Assembly: GCA_020057555.1 (NCBI GenBank)
Contig: JAGVFR010000028.1
Span: 12,444-76,443 of the forward strand
DNA from: a bacterium
GTDB lineage: Bacteria; Patescibacteriota; Patescibacteriia; UBA9934; GWF2-40-263
Direction of reading: 5' to 3'
Length of the DNA: 64,000 nt
A program made the translations under genes and the position numbers. Of the stretch, positions 3,954 to 44,665 are shown in pieces (the first letter of the stretch is position 1; every line of letters begins with the position of its first letter). The notes beneath the pieces were generated by a model. The model saw only the letters and a program-made list of their open reading frames with translations, was not told the DNA's origin and did no database searches.

Positions 3954-4949
3954 CTACTTTCCTACTATCTTTTCAACCCTCCAACATCCATTCTCGCCAC
4001 ATAGCAACATCGCATTTTTTATTGTGTACCCAGCAGCCCTTTCATGACCGCCTCCACCCTTTTCTCTTGCAATCGCACTTACATCGCGTGTTGAAGAACG
4101 CATACTAACCTTAACACCTTGTTCTGAAGTTTCTCGCAAAACATAAATTGTTTCTGTGTCTGTCACAAGACTTAAAAAATTCGACAATCCTTCAATCTCT
4201 TCTTCACTGACTTGATTTTCCTTAATGTCTTTTCGAGTAAGACACGTGATTACAGAATCAAAGTCTGGGTGAAAATGAAGACGCTCAAGCGCCAGACCCC
4301 AAACACGCAATGCCGCAACAGAGCGATTCTTAAATAACATACGAATAGCGTCTTGAATTCGTGCACCTGATAAAATAAGTTTGGAAGCAATATCGAGCGC
4401 GCGATTATTTGTCGCGGAGTTTGTAAACGCTGTAGTGTCAAAACAAAGTCCTGCAAACAAACAAGTCGCGGCGTCTTTGCTAATTGGTAAATGATGACTT
4501 TCAAAAAATCCGTAAACAACTTCGGCAGTTGCTGAAGCATCAACAATCACTTGATTGATGTCACCGTATAAAGAATTTGTTTTGTGATGATCGATATTGA
4601 TAATTCTCGGGTTCCCAGGAATAAGTGCGACAAGACGTTTAATAAACTCCGAATCAGAACAGTCAAACGAAACAACAAGATCAATAGTTGGATCAGAAAA
4701 AATCTCGATATTTTGAGTACAACGATTTATAAATGGAAGTGAGCTATAAACTTCAGGAACTGTGGTTGCAACATACACAAACGGTTGCTGTTTCCCATGA
4801 GTTTGCATAAAATCAACCATTGCAAGAGATGATCCTAGGCTGTCGCCATCAACACGTTCATCAGAAATAAACACAGGATTGTGTGCGTGCATCAAAGCCT
4901 CGTGGATTTGTTTATGTTTATAAGATTCCATAAGTGGGATAGTGTACAA
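3954..4949 (-). CDS. nrnA: DHH-family phosphoesterase (NrnA-like oligoribonuclease / pAp phosphatase)
   Basis: Motifs DERVDGDSLGS, IDHHKTN and a C-terminal DHHA1 GGGGHERAAG. Confidence 0.7.
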   Translation of the reverse strand: MYTIPLMESYKHKQIHEALMHAHNPVFISDERVDGDSLGSSLAMVDFMQTHGKQQPFVYVATTVPEVYSSLPFINRCTQNIEIFSDPTIDLVVSFDCSDSEFIKRLVALIPGNPRIINIDHHKTNSLYGDINQVIVDASATAEVVYGFFESHHLPISKDAATCLFAGLCFDTTAFTNSATNNRALDIASKLILSGARIQDAIRMLFKNRSVAALRVWGLALERLHFHPDFDSVITCLTRKDIKENQVSEEEIEGLSNFLSLVTDTETIYVLRETSEQGVKVSMRSSTRDVSAIAREKGGGGHERAAGYTIKNAMLLCGENGCWRVEKIVGK

Positions 4950-4995
4950 AACAAAGCAAAAATGGTCAATCGTGATATACTATCGTCTAGTTTCT

Positions 4996-7233
4996 ATGCA
5001 TCTCGAACGTCTTGAAATTCAAGGATTCAAAACCTTTGCCAAGAAGACAATTTTAACATTTCTTCCTCCAAAAGAAGGCCATTTTCCTGTTACAGCAATT
5101 GTTGGTCCAAATGGTTCAGGAAAATCAAACAGCGCTGACGCGATTCGTTGGGTTTTGGGAGAACAAAGTTTGAAACTTTTGCGCGGTAAACAATCAGACG
5201 ATGTAATTTTTTCTGGCGCAGAGGGAAAAGCTCGTGCTGGTTTTGCAGAGGTCACACTTCAACTCAACAATGAGGACAAATCAATGCCGATTGAATATGA
5301 AAATGTTGTAATCACACGTCGCCTATATCGCGATGGAACTTCAGAATATCTTCTCAACGAAAGTCATGCAAGACTTATTGATATTCAACTTCTTCTTGCG
5401 CAAGCAAATGTCGGTCAACGATCCTATTCAGTTATCGGGCAAGGAATGGTGGATCATATTTTGGTTTCAACACCGGAAGAACGTAAACAATTTTTTGATG
5501 ACGCAACTGGTGTAAAACAATTTCAGATCAAACGTCATGAAGCAATGTTGAAACTCAAGCACACTCTTGAAAATCTTACTGACGCTGAAATGGTTCTTCA
5601 AGAAATTGAACCACGTTTGCGTTCACTAAAGCGCCAAGCATCTCGTCTTGAAAAACGGGAAGAAGTCGAGACCCAACTTCACGCGCTTGAACAAACTTAC
5701 TATGGAAATCTTTGGTGGCAGATTGTGGATGATATGAACGAGCGCAAGCTCACATTTTCTGAAGTCAATAAAAAAATCAAAACAATAGAAAAAGAATTGG
5801 ACGATCTTGAGAAAAAAATGGTCGTTATTGAAAGATCTGAAACAACAGATGAGGGGCTTCGTGAGCTTCAAAAAAAATACCGCGAAATACAACATAAACG
5901 GGAACAGGCTCGTCACACACAATTTGAAACTGAAAAAGAAATTGAACTTGCAAAAATAAAAGTGCAGTCAAATTGGGCACCACTTCCGCTCATAAAAATC
6001 ATCGAAGGAATCGAGGAAATTAAAAAGAAGCTCACTCTCATGTCATCCCGAGCAAAGTCGAGGGATCTCAATAATTTTGATGAAGTTTTCAAAATTGCTG
6101 ATGAGGCTTTTATATTTTCAAACAAACTGGTTTCACAATTGCAAAGACCAAATGCAACTGACATGAAACCAGATCCAAAGCTTGTTGCAAAACTATCACT
6201 TCTAAAACAAGAAGAGGAGAAATTGAATAAAGAGCTTGTTCGAATTGAAAAAGAAATCGATTCACATGCACAAAAAGAAAAAGAAGCACGAACAGAACTT
6301 ATTGAAACACAACGATCTTTGCGCGCAAAACAACAAGATCTACATCTGCTTGAACAGGAGCGAAACCAATCTGAAATTGAACTCGCTCGTTTGGAAGAAC
6401 GACAGCAAGGTTTGATTCGCGAGATGGACGAGTTTATGAAAGAGAGAGCAGTGAATCTAAGAACAAATCTCCCCCCTACCAGAGGGGGGATAAAGGGGGG
6501 AGGGAGCGAGGAAACTTACCCTGAAATTCAGCGACTTCGTTATAAACTCGAATTGATCGGTGGAATCGATCCTGAAGTCATGAAAGAATATACAGAGATT
6601 CAGGAACGCTTTGATTTTCTAAATACGCACGTGACTGATCTTCGACAAGCAATGCGTTCAACAGAAAAAATCATCAAAGAACTGGACGAAAAAATCGAAC
6701 AACAATCCAAAAAATTATTTGGAGAGATTAACAAAAAATTCCAGCACTATTTCAAAATACTTTTTGGCGGAGGATCATGCGCACTTGTGAAAGTCAGCCA
6801 ATCTGTCATCCCAGAAGTGGAATTATCCAATGAGCCTGTCGAAGGGGTAATGAGTCAGATAAACCAGTCCGAAGGTGTTGATATTCAAGCAACTCCGCCT
6901 GGAAAACGTTTGAAGGCATTGAATCTCTTGTCTGGTGGAGAACGTGCACTTACTTCGATCGCGCTTCTTTCCGCAATCATGGATGTAAACCCTTCCCCGT
7001 TTGTTGTTTTGGATGAAGTTGATGCCGCGCTTGATGAAGCAAACACAATTCGATTTGCCGCAATCTTGGATGAGCTTTCACAAAAAAGTCAGTTCATAAT
7101 CATCACACATAATCGCGCGACAATGGAAAAAGCTGATGTACTGTATGGAGTAACAATGGGCGATGACGGAATTTCAAATTTGCTAAGTGTTCATTTGGAA
7201 GATATTGCAAAAAATGGTTCTGCGAGGAGATGA
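4996..7233 (+). CDS. smc: Chromosome segregation protein SMC, short form (~745 aa from the M at 4996; the ORF begins at 4942)
   Basis: N-terminal Walker A LERLEIQGFKTF...IVGPNGSGKSN. C-terminal signature LSGGERALTSIALLSAIMDVNPSPFVVLDEVDAALDE...IIITHN. The middle is coiled-coil-like with many E/K/R residues. Confidence 0.85.
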   Translation: MHLERLEIQGFKTFAKKTILTFLPPKEGHFPVTAIVGPNGSGKSNSADAIRWVLGEQSLKLLRGKQSDDVIFSGAEGKARAGFAEVTLQLNNEDKSMPIEYENVVITRRLYRDGTSEYLLNESHARLIDIQLLLAQANVGQRSYSVIGQGMVDHILVSTPEERKQFFDDATGVKQFQIKRHEAMLKLKHTLENLTDAEMVLQEIEPRLRSLKRQASRLEKREEVETQLHALEQTYYGNLWWQIVDDMNERKLTFSEVNKKIKTIEKELDDLEKKMVVIERSETTDEGLRELQKKYREIQHKREQARHTQFETEKEIELAKIKVQSNWAPLPLIKIIEGIEEIKKKLTLMSSRAKSRDLNNFDEVFKIADEAFIFSNKLVSQLQRPNATDMKPDPKLVAKLSLLKQEEEKLNKELVRIEKEIDSHAQKEKEARTELIETQRSLRAKQQDLHLLEQERNQSEIELARLEERQQGLIREMDEFMKERAVNLRTNLPPTRGGIKGGGSEETYPEIQRLRYKLELIGGIDPEVMKEYTEIQERFDFLNTHVTDLRQAMRSTEKIIKELDEKIEQQSKKLFGEINKKFQHYFKILFGGGSCALVKVSQSVIPEVELSNEPVEGVMSQINQSEGVDIQATPPGKRLKALNLLSGGERALTSIALLSAIMDVNPSPFVVLDEVDAALDEANTIRFAAILDELSQKSQFIIITHNRATMEKADVLYGVTMGDDGISNLLSVHLEDIAKNGSARR

Positions 7234-7257
7234 ATAATTACAACTCTTCAACTGCAG

Positions 7258-7307
7258 TAAATTATTGCCTGAACCTGTCGAAGGCCATAATTTACTTCTG
7301 TTCAGGT
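7258..7307 (+). repeat. Family-1 intergenic hairpin element (AATTATTGCCTGARCCTGTCGAAGGCC...YTCAGG)
   Basis: aattattgcctgaacctgtcgaaggccataatttacttctgttcagg. The stem CCTGAAC/GTTCAGG covaries with CCTGAGC/GCTCAGG in the copy at 44598. Confidence 0.6.
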
Positions 7308-7938
7308 ATAAACAAAACAACCGTTCTCGATGAGACGGTTGTTTGGTTTCCTGAATATTCAAACTGTGGTTTGACTATTCGGGGTACGGGGCGAGGACAG
7401 ATAATCCTCGCCCAAGAGCTTTGTGGTCGTTCACCTCCACGACCTTTAGGAGAGTTCTTTGTTTCGCAGATTTCTCTGCGCGGACGAAACTCACAACGCC
7501 CGTGACTTCTTTGGAACGCCTTCACTCCTTAAGTAGATAACAAAAGGCGTTTCCTTTCAGGCTTCAGAAGTCTTTTGCCTGCCATGCTTTGGTTGCGAGC
7601 CTGACGACGTCCTGGCCAGAAGCCAGGGAGCTGTTTCGAATGGGATCGCTACTTAGTAGGTTTGCACCTACTTCTGACTCCCCATCAAAACAACCACGCA
7701 TAGTACGCCGACCATTCTGTCTTGTATCCACGCACGGGCGAATGATTTGCCAACGGCCCCGTACGCTTCCCCTATCTCATCAGCCTGTTCCTTTCTCGAC
7801 GCATTTCGTTGTTTCCAACATTTTCCGTTGCTGGATCCAACAACCATGCTCCCCCAGCACATACTGGAGAAGCCCCCAGACACCAGATAGCACCAAAGCT
7901 TCAGAGAACCACCAGATGCGACTTCATCGCACCTTCGT
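7305..7938 (-). ncRNA. Candidate large structured ncRNA (unclassified), about 630 nt. It is GC-rich and has no ORF.
   Basis: A minus-strand promoter has TTGACA at 7974-7969, a 17-nt spacer and TAATCT at 7951-7946. An intrinsic terminator hairpin AACAACCGU...ACGGUUGUU at 7343-7316 is followed by a U-tract. Between them is ~50% GC sequence in a ~39% GC genome with many perfect local hairpins. Only short ORFs rich in Trp/Cys/Arg occur, on both strands, so they look spurious. I found no match to conserved cores of RNase P RNA, tmRNA or SRP RNA. Confidence 0.45.
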
Positions 7939-7994
7939 GGGAAGTAGATTATCATATTTTGACGTTTTTGTCAAGAGCCTACCATGAATACTTG

Positions 7995-8013
7995 GCTCAA
8001 TTTAGCTAAAAAC
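7995..8013 (+). repeat. 18-nt motif GCTCAAWTTAGCTAAAAA, copy 1, upstream of the rpsP promoter. Copy 2 is at 41969 upstream of rpoB.
   Basis: ggctcaatttagctaaaaa here versus tgctcaaattagctaaaaa at 41969, a 17/18 match. A third TTAGCTAAAAA lies at 42079. Confidence 0.5.
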
Positions 8014-8026
8014 AAAAAAGGGTTGT

Positions 8027-8056
8027 CACTTGACAGAAGAAATCAAATCACATACA
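8027..8056 (+). promoter_or_regulatory. Putative sigma70 promoter for rpsP (TTGACA, 17-nt spacer, TACACT)
   Basis: cttgacagaagaaatcaaatcacatacact. An 8-bp hairpin CCACGGCT/AGCCGTGG lies just before the start codon. Confidence 0.35.
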
Positions 8057-8120
8057 CTCTCCTCACATTCACTTTTCAAATACTATACAACCACGGCTAA
8101 AGCCGTGGGCTACAAACACT

Positions 8121-8519
8121 ATGATCTCAATCCGTCTCACACGCGTTGGTAAAACACGAGCGCCAATATATCGCATAGTTGTTCAACCAAAACATCGCGA
8201 TCCATGGTCTCCTGCAATTGAAATTCTCGGCCACTACAATCCACGAAAAGAACCAAAAGAAGTCGTGATCAAAAACGATCGCGTTAAATACTGGCTCTCA
8301 CAAGGAGCGGAAGCAACAGACACTGTTTGGAACATGCTTGTTGATGAGAAAATTGTTGAAGGAAAAAAACGATCAACAACACACATCAGTAATACCCATG
8401 CTGAAAGACTTGAAACAAAAGCAAGCGAAGCTAAAGCCGAATCTGAAAAACAAGAGGCTACAAAAAAAGAAGTTGAAACACCAAAAGAAGAGCCTCCAAA
8501 AGAAGAACCCGCGAACTAA
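8121..8519 (+). CDS. rpsP: 30S ribosomal protein S16 with a charged C-terminal extension
   Basis: MISIRLTRVGKTRAPIYRIVVQ...ILGHYNP. Confidence 0.85.
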   Translation: MISIRLTRVGKTRAPIYRIVVQPKHRDPWSPAIEILGHYNPRKEPKEVVIKNDRVKYWLSQGAEATDTVWNMLVDEKIVEGKKRSTTHISNTHAERLETKASEAKAESEKQEATKKEVETPKEEPPKEEPAN

Positions 8520-9820: not shown

Positions 9821-11502
9821 CCACCGCTACTAGTTCAAGCACCCAAATCATCCAAACACTCTCCCGAGGGAGGCCTCGTGAGAGTTTTCATTACGCTTGA
9901 AGTTAGACGTCCATTACAATTGAATAACATCACATAATATGAACTTCTCTGTTGTGTGATTGTAATGTTTGTTCACGCAAAGAAGCCTTCTCAGTGGCCC
10001 TTTGCAATGACAGAATCCTTTGCTCCTTCTGGAGCATTGGATCTTTACTGAGAGTTTGATCCTGGCTCAGGACGAACGCTGGCGGCAGGTCTAAGGCATG
10101 CAAGTCGAACGGTTTGTTGTTGCCCGCAAGGGTGATGGCGAATAGTGGCAAACGGGAGCGTAACACATTGGTAACCTACCCCGAGCTCGTGAATAATTCA
10201 CCGAAAGGTGGACTAATACACGATATTGATGAGGGGACGCAAGTCATTCTCATTGAAAGCTTCGGCGGCACGGGAGGGGCCTATGCATTATCAGCTAGTT
10301 GGTGAGGTAATGGCTCACCAAGGCTATGACGATTACCGGGCGCGAGAGCGTGGCCCGGCTCACTGGGACTGAGACACGGCCCAGACACCTACGGGTGGCT
10401 GCAGTCAAGAATATTCCTCAATGCACGAAAGTGTGAAGGAGCTATGCCGCGTGCCAGACGAAGGCCTTCGGGTCGTAAATGGCTTTTATAAGGGACGAAC
10501 AAATGACGGTACCTTATGAATAAGGGGCTGCTAATCACGTGCCAGCAGCAGCGGTAATACGTGAGCCCCAAGCGTTGTCCGGATTTATTGGGCGTAAAGA
10601 GTCTGTAGGCTGTTCGATGTGTCATTCGTCAAATCTTCAGGCTCAACCTGGAGGCTGCGAGTGAGACTATCGGACTCGAGAACGGGAGAGGTGCATGGAA
10701 TTGCCGGTGTAGCGGTAAAATGCGTTAATATCGGCAAGAACACCAAAGGCGAAGGCAGTGCACTGGAACGTTTCTGACGCTGAGAGACGAAAGCGTGGGT
10801 AGCGAATGGGATTAGATACCCCAGTAGTCCACGCCGTAAACTATGAATGCTAGGTTTCGGGAGTATCGACCCTCTCGGAGCCGTTCAACCAAGTTAACAC
10901 GTTAAGCATTCCGCCTGGGAAGTACGATCGCAAGATTAAAACTCAAAGGAATAGACGGGGACCCGCACAAGCGGTGGAGCGTGCGGTTTAATTCGATGGT
11001 AAGCGAGGAACCTTACCTGGGCTTGAAAGACAGCTGCAATCCTGATGAAAGTCGGGACGCCTTCGAGGGTGCTGTCTAGGTGCTGCATGGTTGTCGTCAG
11101 CTCGTGGTGTGAACTGTTCCCTTAAGTGGGGTAACGAGCGCAACCCTTATCCCGCGTTATAAGTGTCACGGGAGACTGCCCTCGCAAGAGGGAGGAAGGT
11201 GAGGATGACGTCAAATCAGCATGGCCCTTATGTCCAGGGCGACACGCGCGCTACAATGGCCGGTACAATGGGCAGCCAAATCGTAAGATGGAGCTAATCC
11301 CACAAAGCCGGTCCCAGTTCAGATTGAGGTCTGCAACTCGACCTCATGAAGCCGGAATCGCTAGTAACGGCCGATCAGCCACGCGGCCGTGAATACGTTC
11401 TCGGGTCTTGTACTCACCGCCCGTCACGTCAAGAGAGTTGGCAACACCCGAACGTCGCCGTAGGGCGACGGAAGGTGGGGCTGATGATAAGGACGAAGTC
11501 GT

Positions 11503-12325
11503 AGAGTGAATCTCATTTGTTGCGACTCTCGACAGTAATGTCGATGTTAAAATCTGACTATATCGGTGAAGCCCTATTCCCTCTCTCGGGAAGGGTAATA
11601 CCGAGGGAAGCTTTTATACGATTATGGCAAACAGAAAAGAGTATCACCTAATGCGTCAGTCGGTGCATCTCACCGATTATCAACGTTCGATGCTTATCGG
11701 AACACTTCTTGGAGATGGAAGTCTCGTTGAGACAACATCAAAAAAGAACCTCCGATTAAAAATCGAGTATTGCGATGCTCAACGTGATTATGTCTTCTGG
11801 AAATATGAATGCCTTAAATCGTTTGTCTTAACTCCTCCGAAGTTCCAAATCAGGAACCGCTCGTGGATGTTCAAGACCATTAGTCATCCAGAATTCACGA
11901 TGCTCGGCGATCTCTTCTATGAGAAACGTCGAAAAATCGTACCAGTGGAAATTATGATCCTTCTCAAGGATCCGCTTTCCCTGGCAGTGTGGTTCATGGA
12001 CGATGGATCGAAAAATAGAAATGATGGGTTGATTCTAAATACGCAATGTTTCACTAATAATGAAACAAAGCGATTGAAGAACTGCCTTTCAACTAATTTT
12101 GGCATCGACCATGTTTCACTCCAAAAAGATAAATCTGGGTGGCGCTTGTATGTTCAATCGGCATCGTCCGGTCATATGACACAAGTCATGAAGCCTTACG
12201 TCCTGCCGTGTCTAACATACAAATTGATAAGCCCTGTAGAGACTACACGTCGGCCCCGTCGCCTAATTTCGTAGGCAGGCGGGTGAAGATATAGTCCATG
12301 CCCGGAGTAATCCGTGGAATCACAG
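11503..12325 (+). mobile_element. Group I-like intron at 16S position ~1506 carrying a LAGLIDADG homing endonuclease
   Basis: The 5' exon ends in U and the intron ends in G. A candidate internal guide sequence GCGAC at ~11522 pairs with the exon end GUCGU. An 823-nt insertion splits otherwise conserved 16S sequence, and the ORF fills most of it. Confidence 0.7.
11624..12274 (+). CDS. LAGLIDADG homing endonuclease (two motifs) within the 16S intron
   Basis: LIGTLLGDGSL and LAVWFMDDGSK. Confidence 0.85.
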   Translation: MANRKEYHLMRQSVHLTDYQRSMLIGTLLGDGSLVETTSKKNLRLKIEYCDAQRDYVFWKYECLKSFVLTPPKFQIRNRSWMFKTISHPEFTMLGDLFYEKRRKIVPVEIMILLKDPLSLAVWFMDDGSKNRNDGLILNTQCFTNNETKRLKNCLSTNFGIDHVSLQKDKSGWRLYVQSASSGHMTQVMKPYVLPCLTYKLISPVETTRRPRRLIS

Positions 12326-12526
12326 AACAAGGCACCCGTAGCGGAAGCTGTGGGTGGATCACCTCCTTTTTAGGGATATTTTCTTCTGAAGCTTTATGCG
12401 GATGAGGAACATGATCCCAGGTCGAGATCAATCTATCAGGTTGGTCGGACTCGGCCCTCGGGCCGAGAAAATATTCGGACAAACATTGCAATCATAGAGT
12501 AGAGAAGGATTGAAATTCATCCTGAA

Positions 12527-12574: not shown

Positions 12575-12649
<75 letters not shown>

Positions 12650-12655
12650 AAATAT

Positions 12656-12684
12656 ATTGCCTGAGCCTGTCGAAGGCTGCAGGG
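12656..12684 (+). repeat. Family-1 intergenic element, short form
   Basis: attgcctgagcctgtcgaaggctgcaggg. Confidence 0.5.
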
Positions 12685-13150: not shown

Positions 13151-13280
13151 AGTTTTGTGTAAATAAGGAGCGGAAAAAGTATACCAATGCCAGCAAAAAA
13201 TGAAAAGCCCTGAACCACGTTTGGTTCAGGGCGAAAATCTATGCGTGGAAACACGCAACAAAACTGTTGATTTGTAAGGA

Positions 13281-14525
13281 TTACGGCATAAATTCCTCTT
13301 GGGGGATCAAAATAATCAAATCACGTTTACGAATGGAAAAAAATATAAGCGCAATCACGCAAAGTCCAATCGAAACTAAAAAAACAAATTCAAGATTGAT
13401 TTTCGCGATCCATCCGGCAAAAAATAAAATAGGGATATCAAGTATGGCCTTAAAAACATTCAGATTTGAAAGAGTCGTCGCACGACTTCGAGAGTTGATG
13501 CGACTGTTCATCGTGCTAGCGAATACGGGTTCGCGAACAGTTTCCAAAACGATCGTTGTTAATATAAAAACAAAAAGGAGCCATGAGATATCTGTTAAAA
13601 AAACACCGACAAGACTCACGATCATTAAAGCGATACTCCAAAAAAGAGCGCGTGTTGTGCCAAGGATCTTTTCAATTCGGCCGATTTGTTGATGACCAAT
13701 AAAACAAATTCCATGCATTATAAAATAAAAAACACCAAGCCAAAAAATACTTACGCCGTGTTCATAAAGAAATGGCTGATAAGCTCGCCAAACAAGAAAG
13801 CTCGCAATGAATATCAAAAGCTTGTTCATCGAGGCACGAAAAAGAAATGGCTCGTGTAAGATCGTCTCAAAGCTTTCTCGAAAAATTCCTTTTTCATATT
13901 CCGTGACATTCTTAGTGTGCTTTGGTTCAGTTAAAAAGAAAAAGACAAGTAACCCAGCAATGACTGCAAAAATATTTACCCAAATGAGAATACTAAATTG
14001 AAACTCTGTAAGATCTTTGGCAATCCAAGCACCAAGAATTGGAACAATGATATTAAAAAAATGCTGTGCTGAATGAAGACGTCCGTTGTGCTTTGTCATT
14101 TCTTTGTCTTCCCCAAGCTCCTTTAGGGAATCATAAAGAAACGCTTCTTCTGTTCCAGAGAAACAAGAAAAAGAAGCTGACATGATAACAAAGACAATTA
14201 CGAAAGCTGGAAAGCTTGTCGCGAACAATGTTGCGACCCAAGAAAGCGCAAGTAAAAATGCTCCAAGAATCAGTGTTCGCTTTCTACCAAATCTATCCGC
14301 AAGATAGCCAGTTGGAACTTCAAAAAGAAGAGTGGAGAGCGACCAAACAATACTCAAATAAAAAATTTCATTGATCTCGACACCGCGGTGTAAATAAAAA
14401 AGAGTAACTATTGCATTAAGAATGTTTAATCTAACAAACGCTTTTCCCCAAAAAAGAAGATTCTGATTTCTTTTAAGATGTTCTGTTCGATACATATGTT
14501 CAATCATACTAATACGATCCGTCAA
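13281..14525 (-). CDS. Major facilitator superfamily (MFS) transporter
   Basis: 414 aa with 12 predicted TM helices. MFS motif A GYLADRFGRKRT. Confidence 0.75.
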   Translation of the reverse strand: MTDRISMIEHMYRTEHLKRNQNLLFWGKAFVRLNILNAIVTLFYLHRGVEINEIFYLSIVWSLSTLLFEVPTGYLADRFGRKRTLILGAFLLALSWVATLFATSFPAFVIVFVIMSASFSCFSGTEEAFLYDSLKELGEDKEMTKHNGRLHSAQHFFNIIVPILGAWIAKDLTEFQFSILIWVNIFAVIAGLLVFFFLTEPKHTKNVTEYEKGIFRESFETILHEPFLFRASMNKLLIFIASFLVWRAYQPFLYEHGVSIFWLGVFYFIMHGICFIGHQQIGRIEKILGTTRALFWSIALMIVSLVGVFLTDISWLLFVFILTTIVLETVREPVFASTMNSRINSRSRATTLSNLNVFKAILDIPILFFAGWIAKINLEFVFLVSIGLCVIALIFFSIRKRDLIILIPQEEFMP

Positions 14526-44597: not shown

Positions 44598-44665
44598 CCC
44601 TGAGCGGAGGCAATCATGGCCTTCGACAGGCTCAGGCAATAATTGCCGAAGTCGAAGGGTTCAGG
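44598..44665 (-). repeat. Family-1 intergenic element plus an adjacent partial GTCGAAGG hairpin
   Basis: The reverse complement is aattattgcctgagcctgtcgaaggccatgattgcctccgctcaggg. The stem is CCTGAGC/GCTCAGG. Confidence 0.6.

Follow-up and report, generated by a model that had tools for sequence, protein, structure and literature searches.

What is encoded by the ~630 nucleotides (nt) that separate smc from rpsP in the genome of a member of the Patescibacteria, an interval that is rich in guanine plus cytosine (G+C) and is bounded by a promoter and a terminator? We addressed this question in a 64,000-nt stretch of contig JAGVFR010000028.1 (assembly GCA_020057555.1), hereafter termed the window. 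A reading made from the sequence alone, without database searches (hereafter, the sequence-only reading), had proposed that the interval specifies a large structured non-coding RNA akin to OLE, GOLLD, or ROOL. Our analyses firmly support the presence of a ~630-nt non-coding RNA gene that belongs to a family absent from Rfam, and it is very probable that this RNA is real, new, structured, and selected.

The RNA unit spans window positions 7308-7974 on the minus strand. It is flanked by smc (4942-7233, plus strand; Pfam SMC_N, E = 1.5e-65) and by rpsP (8121-8519, plus strand; Pfam Ribosomal_S16), which is followed by trmD and a gene for a KhpA-like KH-domain protein. Since both smc and rpsP are on the plus strand, the RNA unit is transcribed against both of its neighbors. 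In what follows, L001, L002, L044, and so forth are locus labels of relatives, and the suffixes a and b denote the two RNA copies of L106. The signals that delimit the unit are:

7969-7974, minus strand: -35 hexamer TTGACA, read from the sequence and invariant in the promoters of L044, L106a, L106b, L001, L118, L002, and L126
7946-7954, minus strand: extended -10 element TGaTAATCT, with the hexamer TAATCT at 7951-7946, 17 nt from the -35 hexamer, and the TG at 7954-7953
7308-7344, minus strand: intrinsic terminator with a 10-bp stem, AAACAACCGU (7344-7335) / ACGGUUGUUU (7324-7315), a 10-nt loop, and then UGUUUAU

The minus-strand promoter TTGACA-17-TAATCT that the sequence-only reading had reported is present (7974-7946), and its arrangement is conserved in relatives. 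A promoter of the form TTGACA-17-TAnnnT, with the TG, heads the homologous RNA in L044, L106a, L001, L106b, and L118; in L002 and L126, the same promoter type is found only ~1-2 kb upstream of the RNA, with open reading frames (ORFs) in between. Aligned -10 hexamers of relatives comprise TATGAT, TATTCT, TATCGT, TATAGT, and TAGTAT, most of them with an upstream TG. The promoter was not listed by a consensus scan because its -10 hexamer matches TATAAT at just three of six positions, and we consider its conservation among relatives to be better evidence than a consensus score. Transcription would start near 7938-7940. The terminator had likewise been reported, as a 9-bp GC-rich stem; a terminator is indeed present, but its stem is 10 bp long and only moderately G+C-rich (4 G-C pairs of 10), and it is absent from the scan output because its 10-nt loop exceeds the limit of the scan. 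Terminators of the window type follow AUUCAGGAAACC in L044, L001, and L106b, and follow ORFs in L106, L118, and L117. The reported GC enrichment also held, with a G+C fraction of 0.508 over 7309-7940 versus 0.416 for the whole window (200-nt windows reach 0.48-0.54), as did all four of the hairpins that had been quoted. The minus strand is the G-rich strand of the RNA unit, and its folding z-score is -6.9 versus -4.3 for the plus strand.

Seven other Uhrbacteria-like genomes (eight including the window) carry homologs of the RNA at the corresponding position between smc and rpsP, and every copy is encoded on the strand opposite to that of these two genes. Scans of genomes and metagenomes relied on one exact motif (from helix H1, described below) and one protein anchor (rpsP). 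The rpsP-anchored scan of GTDB recovered L001, from a Candidatus Uhrbacteria metagenome-assembled genome, and L002, with SMC proteins that are 89% and 61% identical to that of the window, respectively. Application of nhmmer located the RNA next to rpsP in both, as near-identical blocks separated by inserts of variable length, an alignment pattern that we regard as typical of structured RNA. Of 86 loci that matched the H1 motif in the metagenome scan, nhmmer and a covariance model identified only L106, L044, and L075 as true homologs, the last two being overlapping contigs from a single close relative; the remaining loci were chance matches of <=22 bits. Further syntenic loci were taken from contigs carrying rpsP homologs. 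The covariance model, R1, was built from hand-trimmed core sequences of seven copies and yielded the following matches:

Window, 7572-7777, minus strand: R1 160.7 bits
L044/L075, one copy: R1 155 bits
L106, two copies: R1 141 and 93 bits
L001, one copy: R1 125 bits
L118/L119, two tandem modules: R1 114 and 27 bits
L002, two tandem modules: R1 105 and 34.5 bits
L126-128, one copy: R1 37 bits, E ~ 1e-8
L129/L130, a reduced version: R1 27 bits

No match to R1 was obtained in other rpsP loci (L121-125, L132-134, L256-268) or in unrelated loci. BLAST searches of phage and plasmid collections returned no match, and a scan of IMG/VR with a looser motif returned chance matches only. As far as was searched, the RNA family is confined to a clade of Uhrbacteria (Patescibacteria/Candidate Phyla Radiation, CPR) that comprises ultra-small groundwater bacteria, and even close relatives (L121, L123, L256) lack the RNA at the smc-rpsP site.

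The part of the RNA that is shared by these copies is a core module, which in the window comprises:

7572-7777, minus strand: core module of ~205 nt that matches R1, consisting of H1-H6, a pseudoknot, and invariant unpaired blocks
7731-7765, minus strand: hairpin H1, CGUACGGG (7765-7758) / CCCGUGCG (7738-7731), 8 pairs, 5 of them with two-sided changes, 97.5% paired
7605-7710, minus strand: H2, CGGCGU (7710-7705) / ACGUCG (7610-7605), 96.8% paired, closing the junction of H3-H6
7582-7703, minus strand: pseudoknot, CUAUGC (7703-7698) / GCAUGG (7587-7582), crossing H2
7695-7687 / 7637-7629, minus strand: H3, two-sided changes at 5 of 6 pairs
7686-7681 / 7644-7639, minus strand: H4, two-sided changes at 4 of 6 pairs
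7670-7657, minus strand: variable hairpin H5, absent or very short in L044 and L126 and ~80 nt long in L106b
7611-7627, minus strand: hairpin H6, CCUGG (7627-7623) / CCAGG (7615-7611), two-sided changes at 5 of 5 pairs, 95.9% paired

The helices of the core covary strongly. In a model-guided alignment of 11 module copies from the eight genomes, 93.7% of pair cells hold standard pairs versus 31-43% in slid controls, in which the 3' partners were moved by 1-3 columns. Two-sided changes occur at 22 of the 37 core pairs in this alignment, a count that ignores phylogeny, and none of 500 column shuffles reached the observed value on any of five measures. Since the model-guided alignment was fitted to the nested helices, the pseudoknot and an alignment made from sequence only serve as further checks. 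The pseudoknot, which is not in the alignment model, is nonetheless supported by its pairing (98.3% paired in 11 copies, with a C-G to G-C swap in L002 and five wobble changes). A plain MAFFT alignment, for which the input was hand-trimmed with trimming chosen with the structure in mind, is 91.8% paired versus 28-43% in slid controls and has 15 pairs with two-sided changes. 

Individual helices illustrate these changes. A C-G pair of H2 is replaced by U-A in L002 (CGGUGU/ACAUCG) and by G-C in another copy; H3 is wholly different in L002 (GAGCUUG/CAAGCUC); H4 changes from GAUGG/CCAUU to GACGG/CCGUC; and H6 becomes CUCGG/CCGAG in type-b copies. H5 and an internal loop that resembles loop E (GAGUCAGAAG / CUAAGUAGCGAU) are enclosed by H3 and H4, while the loop of H1 contains a conserved AAUCAU and an optional sub-hairpin. 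The invariant unpaired blocks are GGAAG, AAUCAU, UGGAU, GAGAGUnnGGAAA opposite AGUAcGAAGCGA, GACGUCG, and AAGCAUGG; by resemblance only, GAGAGUnnGGAAA / AGUAcGAAGCGA can be described as a loop-E/bulged-G-like motif. An H-type pseudoknot between AUCCG of the H1 loop and UGGAU was ruled out on geometry, as there is no linker to cross H1. A group II domain V reading of H1 was also rejected: although H1 has an AGC triad, it lacks a bulge and a GNRA loop and has no match in Rfam.

Conservation of the RNA exceeds that of silent positions in neighboring genes. The RNAs of the window and L044 are 91.1% identical over 584 aligned positions, whereas four-fold degenerate sites compared between the window and L044/L075 are 71% identical in smc (n = 289), 70% in rpsP, 56% in trmD, and 88% in the KH gene (n = 49, a short gene). 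Likewise, the RNAs of the window and L001 are 77.5% identical versus 64-69% for four-fold sites of smc and trmD, and the RNA of L106a is 87% identical to that of the window. In L002 and L126 (61% SMC identity), the module is still recovered (E ~1e-27 and ~1e-8), at a divergence where neutral DNA would not be alignable. The rate at which the RNA changes is about one-third of that at the synonymous sites of its neighbors, and the comparisons firmly support the interpretation of a structured-RNA gene under purifying selection.

The core is preceded by a 5' region that varies among copies and is followed by a 3' domain:

7778-7940, minus strand: variable 5' region, with a start-proximal hairpin (7933-7915) and optional hairpins (7873-7848 and 7844-7808)
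7350-7581, minus strand: 3' domain of ~230 nt, a chain of hairpins
7581-7577 / 7562-7558, minus strand: H7, CAGGC / GCCUG
7554-7544 / 7522-7513, minus strand: H8, a long hairpin
7502-7465, minus strand: H9/H10
7455-7449 / 7440-7426, minus strand: CUCC/GGAGG hairpin, ACUCUCC / GUGGAGGUGAACGAC
7413-7405 / 7397-7389, minus strand: H12, GGGCGAGGA / UCCUCGCCC
7384-7350, minus strand: stem-loop H13, which ends in AUUCAGG

Within the 5' region, L044 lacks 28 nt, L106a lacks ~65 nt, and type-b copies differ, while the pairing of the start-proximal hairpin is kept through G-C to A-U changes. An RNAalifold consensus of the 3' domain contains 57 pairs, 23 of which are kept through two-sided changes, and H7 and H8 refold in most homologs despite differing sequence. 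The CUCC/GGAGG hairpin presents a perfect Shine-Dalgarno-like GGAGGU; the window, L044, L106a, and L126 all retain its motif CGUGGAGGUnAACGAC, and L002 keeps CGUGGAGGUcAA. Candidate alternative pairings involve CCUG with two CAGG sites (GCCUG of H7 versus UUCAGG of H13) and CUCC with GGAGG. A possible long-range antiterminator, composed of the 5' strand of H3 (GGUUGUUUU) and the 5' arm of the terminator, is not conserved in type b and was treated as coincidence.

To place the RNA among known families, Rfam 15 was searched at gathering score over the whole window and with permissive filters (E<=10) over 7150-8200. The former recovered only the 16S ribosomal RNA (rRNA) and five tRNAs. The latter returned just noise at the terminator and promoter hairpins (best E 0.26, far below gathering scores), and included no covariance-model match for RNase P RNA (RF00010/RF00011) or signal recognition particle (SRP) RNA (RF00169/RF01854). 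Homologous regions of L001, L002, and L118 had no relevant match (none with E<0.4 in L118 and L002). Neither Rfam nor ARAGORN detected a transfer-messenger RNA (tmRNA; RF00023) in the window, whether by tRNA-like ends or by a tag frame. The absence of RNase P, tmRNA, and SRP RNA is in accord with the sequence-only reading, and the wider Rfam comparison that it had called for was equally empty. Specifically, OLE (RF01071) had no covariance-model match in the window or its homologs. There was no model match to ROOL or GOLLD (RF03087/RF01998), and the context is the chromosomal smc-rpsP site rather than a prophage or the proximity of a tRNA. HEARO/omega RNA (RF02033) and raiA (RF03072) had no model match, and no adjacent IscB/TnpB gene was found here or in the islands examined. 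Group I and II introns (RF00028, RF00029, RF02001, and relatives) also had no model match, and the unit is intergenic with its own promoter and terminator.

The genomic setting of the RNA differs considerably among relatives. The smc-rpsP interval is hypervariable in the clade, ranging from 50 nt to 6.6 kb with differing gene sets, as is evident in loci that illustrate its extremes:

L121, L123, L256: interval of 50-116 nt with nothing else
L264: interval that holds a methyltransferase gene
L117, L118, L120, L126, L129: 0.9-6.6 kb of small genes on the minus strand

Stand-alone units that run from promoter to terminator without an ORF are present in the window, L044/L075, L001, and L106b, and the L126 copy is likewise without a following ORF. 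In contrast, four of nine copies (L106a, L118, L002, and the reduced L129) are linked to ORFs with no terminator in between. In L118, a TTGACA-17-TATCGT promoter (8742-8714) precedes ~1.1 kb of RNA with two modules, after which UUAGGAGGAGGUGUCUCAUG, with a strong Shine-Dalgarno sequence and ATG, opens a gene for a 190-amino acid (aa) DUF1439 lipoprotein-like protein, followed by that of a 71-aa protein with two transmembrane segments; the unit ends in CCUGAGCG...UUUCAGGAAAC and the same terminator as in the window. The L106a copy ends in AUUCAGG, after which GGAGGGAAAAGAAAUG and an ORF of 138 aa with multiple transmembrane segments follow with no terminator in between. This ORF is followed by a second H12'-H13' element, AUUCAGGAAACC, a terminator, and a palindromic repeat of the window type, and then by a second promoter and the ORF-less copy b, which is of the L001 type, such that a separate promoter precedes each of the two full copies in L106. 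In L002, a distance of ~2 kb that includes two ORFs separates the conserved promoter from a two-module RNA, which is succeeded by AUUCAGGUGAGG..AAGGAGGU, 5 nt, and the GUG of a 73-aa membrane ORF, with AUUCAGG preceding AAGGAGGU. The ORFs that follow the RNA show no relationship to each other, and DUF1439 is the sole family match among them. A role as a specific leader of DUF1439 genes was ruled out, since L117 and L255, two of the three homologs in the protein database, lack the module even with filters off.

Stem-loops like H13 that end in UUCAGG occur before and after ORFs and, in L002, on both sides of the RNA. A CACCYGAG-hairpin-UUCAGG(Y)GAGG stem-loop recurs directly before ORFs, and CCYGAGCG-hairpin-UUCAGGAAAC with a terminator recurs after them (L118, 7650 and 6664; L002, 7845 and 6934; L117, 9207 and 8465; L106, ~720 and ~1290; window, 7350-7384). 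As read from their placement, the UUCAGG stem-loops look like unit boundaries, whether as a processing or a recombination site. In a direct alignment, the window and L106a are nearly identical as far as AUUCAGG, beyond which the window matches the sequence that follows the ORF of L106. The window therefore corresponds to L106a minus a ~590-nt segment between two AUUCAGG repeats, or L106a corresponds to the window plus an insertion. The H13 of L044 is of the type found after ORFs, which suggests that the window and L044 have different junctions.

Two further elements were noted at this site. In L002 (9859-9677, minus strand) and L126 (7281-7137, minus strand), a conserved hairpin of 20 bp (AGCYGAUUAUUGGGUAU...) with a U run lies ~70 nt beyond a TTGACA-17-TAnnnT promoter. 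This element, a putative short RNA or attenuator at the head of the island operon, is missing from the window. In the window, a 78-nt nested palindromic repeat (7235-7312), CCUGAAC...GUUCAGG inside GUAAAUUAU...AAUAAUUUAC, abuts the RNA terminator. This is the family-1 repeat that the earlier reading had placed just past the terminator; the repeat is real, but the window otherwise holds just two short partial copies of it (44616-44644 and 12655-12677). Further occurrences are in L001 (8408-8480 and 15609-15683) and L106 (~1345-1400); as in the window, the repeat adjoins the RNA terminator in both, whereas L044 lacks it at this position. The repeat arms share CCUGAA/UUCAGG words with H7 and H13.

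Several explanations other than a new structured RNA must be weighed against these data. That the interval conceals a protein-coding gene, or a decaying pseudogene, by means of frameshifts or an alternative code is barely conceivable, even though one plus-strand frame has just four stops in 750 nt and relatives have protein genes in the same interval. The ORFs of the RNA region (35-132 aa), down to the longest, have no Pfam match, and their hypothetical translations are only ~55% identical to those of L044 although the DNA is 91% identical, with frames that switch; the two RNAs differ by indels of 28, 7, 10, and 1 nt. These observations agree with the earlier view that the ORFs are spurious. 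The smc gene stops at TGA and reads normally with code 11, and no ORF spans the RNA unit when UGA is read as sense, which rules out an alternative code; a search of the window by tblastn with the island proteins of relatives found nothing, which rules out a pseudogene of those proteins. An intact conserved ORF in homologs had been named as a sign of a pseudogene; the ORFs of relatives are instead 3' of the RNA and mutually unrelated, and conservation tracks base pairing rather than codons. A highly divergent housekeeping or catalytic RNA (RNase P RNA, tmRNA, SRP RNA, 6S RNA, or a group I/II intron) that Rfam missed is also highly improbable. The RNA does resemble stable housekeeping RNAs in its size, its G+C enrichment, the strength of its promoter, and its pseudoknotted fold, and CPR RNAs are often atypical. 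However, the Rfam and ARAGORN results described above provide no trace of such an RNA, the unit lies outside any host gene and without intron-type ORFs, and it is absent from the site in close relatives. Look-alikes of RNase P CR-I (GAGGAAAGUCC) and CR-V (ACAGAAnnCGGCUUA) can be found in the window (GAGAAAGGAAC and ACAGAAUGG), but the P4/CR-I/CR-V motifs are not conserved across homologs, and the two full copies in L106 and tandem modules in L118 and L002 are at odds with a single-copy RNA such as that of RNase P. We consider it very unlikely, if less so, that the island is a cassette or mobile-element scaffold in which UUCAGG stem-loops are recombination sites, loosely like integron attC, and in which conservation operates at the level of DNA rather than RNA function. 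The hypervariable interval with its differing gene sets, the direct repeats of the H12-H13 element that flank ORFs, and the palindromic repeat at the terminator in three genomes would be in keeping with such a scaffold. Conversely, covariation keeps RNA pairs on one strand, G-U wobbles and the pseudoknot included, folding is asymmetric between strands, and the RNA is always at the same chromosomal site, with just one copy per ~20-kb locus, and has no match in phage and plasmid collections or IMG/VR. Moreover, no integrase, transposase, or reverse transcriptase is in or next to the island at the loci examined, and the UUCAGG stem-loops, as read by eye, lack the RYYYAAC/GTTRRRY cores of attC.

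The ORF-linked copies, the tandem modules, and the geometry of ORF deletion make origin as a cis-regulatory leader a serious rival to an OLE- or ROOL-like interpretation. According to this explanation, the RNA is an orphaned, very large riboswitch-like or protein-binding 5' leader of small envelope-protein genes. The core module or modules would sense a signal, the 3' domain (CUCC/GGAGG, CCUG-CAGG, and terminator) would set read-through or translation, and excision of the window ORF between AUUCAGG stem-loops would have left the leader fused to the operon terminator, either as a relic or as a transcript secondarily used in trans. A 5' untranslated location is indeed seen in L118, where the promoter, two-module RNA, membrane-associated genes, and UUCAGGAAAC terminator element follow one another, in L106a, in L002 with its 5-nt spacing to the GUG, and in the reduced L129, and the match of the window to sequence on either side of the L106 ORF is as this history would predict. 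The core, at 93.7% paired with two-sided changes at 22 of 37 pairs, has the structure expected of the sensor domain of a riboswitch class. Furthermore, L118, L002, and L129 are the three deeper lineages by SMC identity and all are ORF-linked, such that parsimony favors an ORF-linked ancestor. The same facts weigh against an autonomous RNA: nearly half of the copies (4/9) are directly followed by ORFs, as a leader would be; core modules in L118 and L002 are in tandem, as in tandem riboswitches; and the anti-Shine-Dalgarno/Shine-Dalgarno-like CUCC...GGAGG hairpin and competing CCUG/CAGG pairings resemble an expression platform. The ORF of the window copy could have been lost recently, by deletion between direct repeats, and since the window and L044 seem to differ in their junctions, part of the conservation measured may date from an ORF-bearing ancestor; in addition, the evidence rests on eight genomes. 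Nevertheless, we regard the leader explanation as rather unlikely. Five copies (window, L044, L001, L106b, and L126) are ORF-less with helices intact, four of which keep their own promoter and terminator, and the ORF-less orthologs of the window and L044 are far more similar than their ~70% identity at synonymous sites. L106 bears two promoter-bearing copies side by side, downstream ORFs share no common family, and DUF1439 genes occur without the module in L117 and L255. In L002, the RNA is preceded by ORFs of the same operon and has UUCAGG stem-loops on both sides, an arrangement more in keeping with a separable unit than with a 5' leader. Finally, to our knowledge, the size of the RNA (630 to ~1150 nt) is beyond any known riboswitch or leader.

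Of the sequence-only reading, then, the structured ~630-nt RNA stands, whereas its stand-alone character does not hold throughout, given the linkage to ORFs in four relatives. That the RNA acts autonomously, and not merely in cis, is the reading that we prefer, a real prospect that falls a little short of probable. More tentatively still, it may be the founding member of an Uhrbacteria-specific class of large, modular, pseudoknotted RNAs that serve as OLE-like autonomous scaffolds for a ligand or protein, are coupled to exchangeable cassettes for small membrane proteins, and have UUCAGG boundaries. As an autonomous RNA, it might bind a protein or small ligand through its folded core module, and its role might be connected with the small membrane and lipoprotein genes that accompany it elsewhere. 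The island is composed of units (the RNA; small envelope-protein ORFs) divided by the AUUCAGG stem-loop, with only the RNA unit in this genome. These stem-loops might mark the limits of units or be sites of processing at which the RNA is released from the ORFs with which it is co-transcribed in relatives.

Several features of the surrounding sequence are of separate interest. A hairpin, ACCACGGCUAAAGCCGUGGG, at 8090-8120 (plus strand) lies just before the rpsP start codon and is kept in L001; it may act as a leader element of rpsP, and its sole Rfam match is sub-threshold (Acido-Lenti-1, 17.7 bits versus a gathering score of 37). An S-adenosylmethionine (SAM) riboswitch (RF00162) is directly downstream of rpsP in L001 (10552-10656) and L002 (10499-10600). 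In the relatives L126 and L129, the SAM riboswitch is located ahead of a radical-SAM gene; the window is without both, and trmD directly follows rpsP. The SMC protein is 763 aa here and ~710-770 aa in the clade, with head domains intact, whereas bacterial SMC is usually ~1,180 aa, which suggests a shortened coiled coil. The 16S rRNA gene (10044-11521, 1478 nt) has no group I intron and no adjoining 23S rRNA. About 100 nt past its 3' end, a 216-aa ORF (11624-12274, plus strand) carries LAGLIDADG motifs (LLGDGS and WFMDDGS) and may be the remnant of an intron/homing endonuclease or a free-standing endonuclease gene; a G+C-rich stretch (12100-12500 region) and then tRNA-Phe (12575-12649, minus strand) lie past it. 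The 16S rRNA gene of L001, the closest named relative, has a group I intron at 13274-13524.

Few large structured RNAs of unknown function are known from bacteria, the main examples being OLE, ROOL, GOLLD, and raiA, and several of them have recently been found to form unexpected architectures. We found no report of a large structured RNA from Patescibacteria/CPR in the literature searched. CPR genomes are tiny, and the expenditure of 0.6-1.1 kb on a non-coding RNA therefore implies a real job. A compact covarying module with a pseudoknot is suited to structural as well as ligand-binding work, and the occurrence of stand-alone and ORF-fused states, both in L106, renders the question of leader versus autonomous RNA directly testable. 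The narrow distribution and lack of cultured hosts limit the immediate reach of the finding.

Among characterized systems, the RNA shares with OLE (Rfam RF01071), the structure of which has been described (PMC12286853), a length of ~600 nt, an ornate fold with many conserved unpaired nucleotides, and G+C richness relative to the host. Both can reside in operons co-transcribed with protein genes, and both have a genomic tie to small membrane proteins. They differ in that there is no match to the OLE sequence or structure model, the hosts are Uhrbacteria rather than the extremophilic Firmicutes of OLE, genes for oapA/B/C-like partners are lacking here and the accompanying ORFs vary between genomes, and the core of the present RNA is modular and duplicable. 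Like ROOL (RF03087) and GOLLD (RF01998; PMC12286853), the RNA forms a large, covariation-rich, G+C-rich, ORF-free island with its own promoter and terminator. Those RNAs, in contrast, are typically prophage- or tRNA-proximal and widely scattered, whereas that of the Uhrbacteria occupies one chromosomal site in one clade without a phage, plasmid, or IMG/VR match. Similarly to raiA (RF03072) and HEARO (RF02033), it is a structured RNA beside variable genes, a setting in which those RNAs were once taken for leaders or orphans, but it matches neither model, adjoins no IscB/TnpB gene, and is far larger than raiA. With tandem riboswitches and large leaders (glycine RF00504, cobalamin RF00174, T-box RF00230, and M-box RF00380), it has in common a pseudoknotted, multi-helix, sensor-like module that is sometimes in tandem, a position upstream of genes without an intervening terminator (L118, L002, L106a), Shine-Dalgarno-like/anti-Shine-Dalgarno hairpins, and a 3' terminator. 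Unlike these, it exceeds every known riboswitch 3-5x in length, is without a downstream gene in five copies, and in the others precedes genes that share no family; neither a ligand hinted at by context nor a family match is apparent. Collectively, the RNA is a member of neither group and, by analogy, would work most like OLE or, alternatively, like a very large tandem riboswitch.

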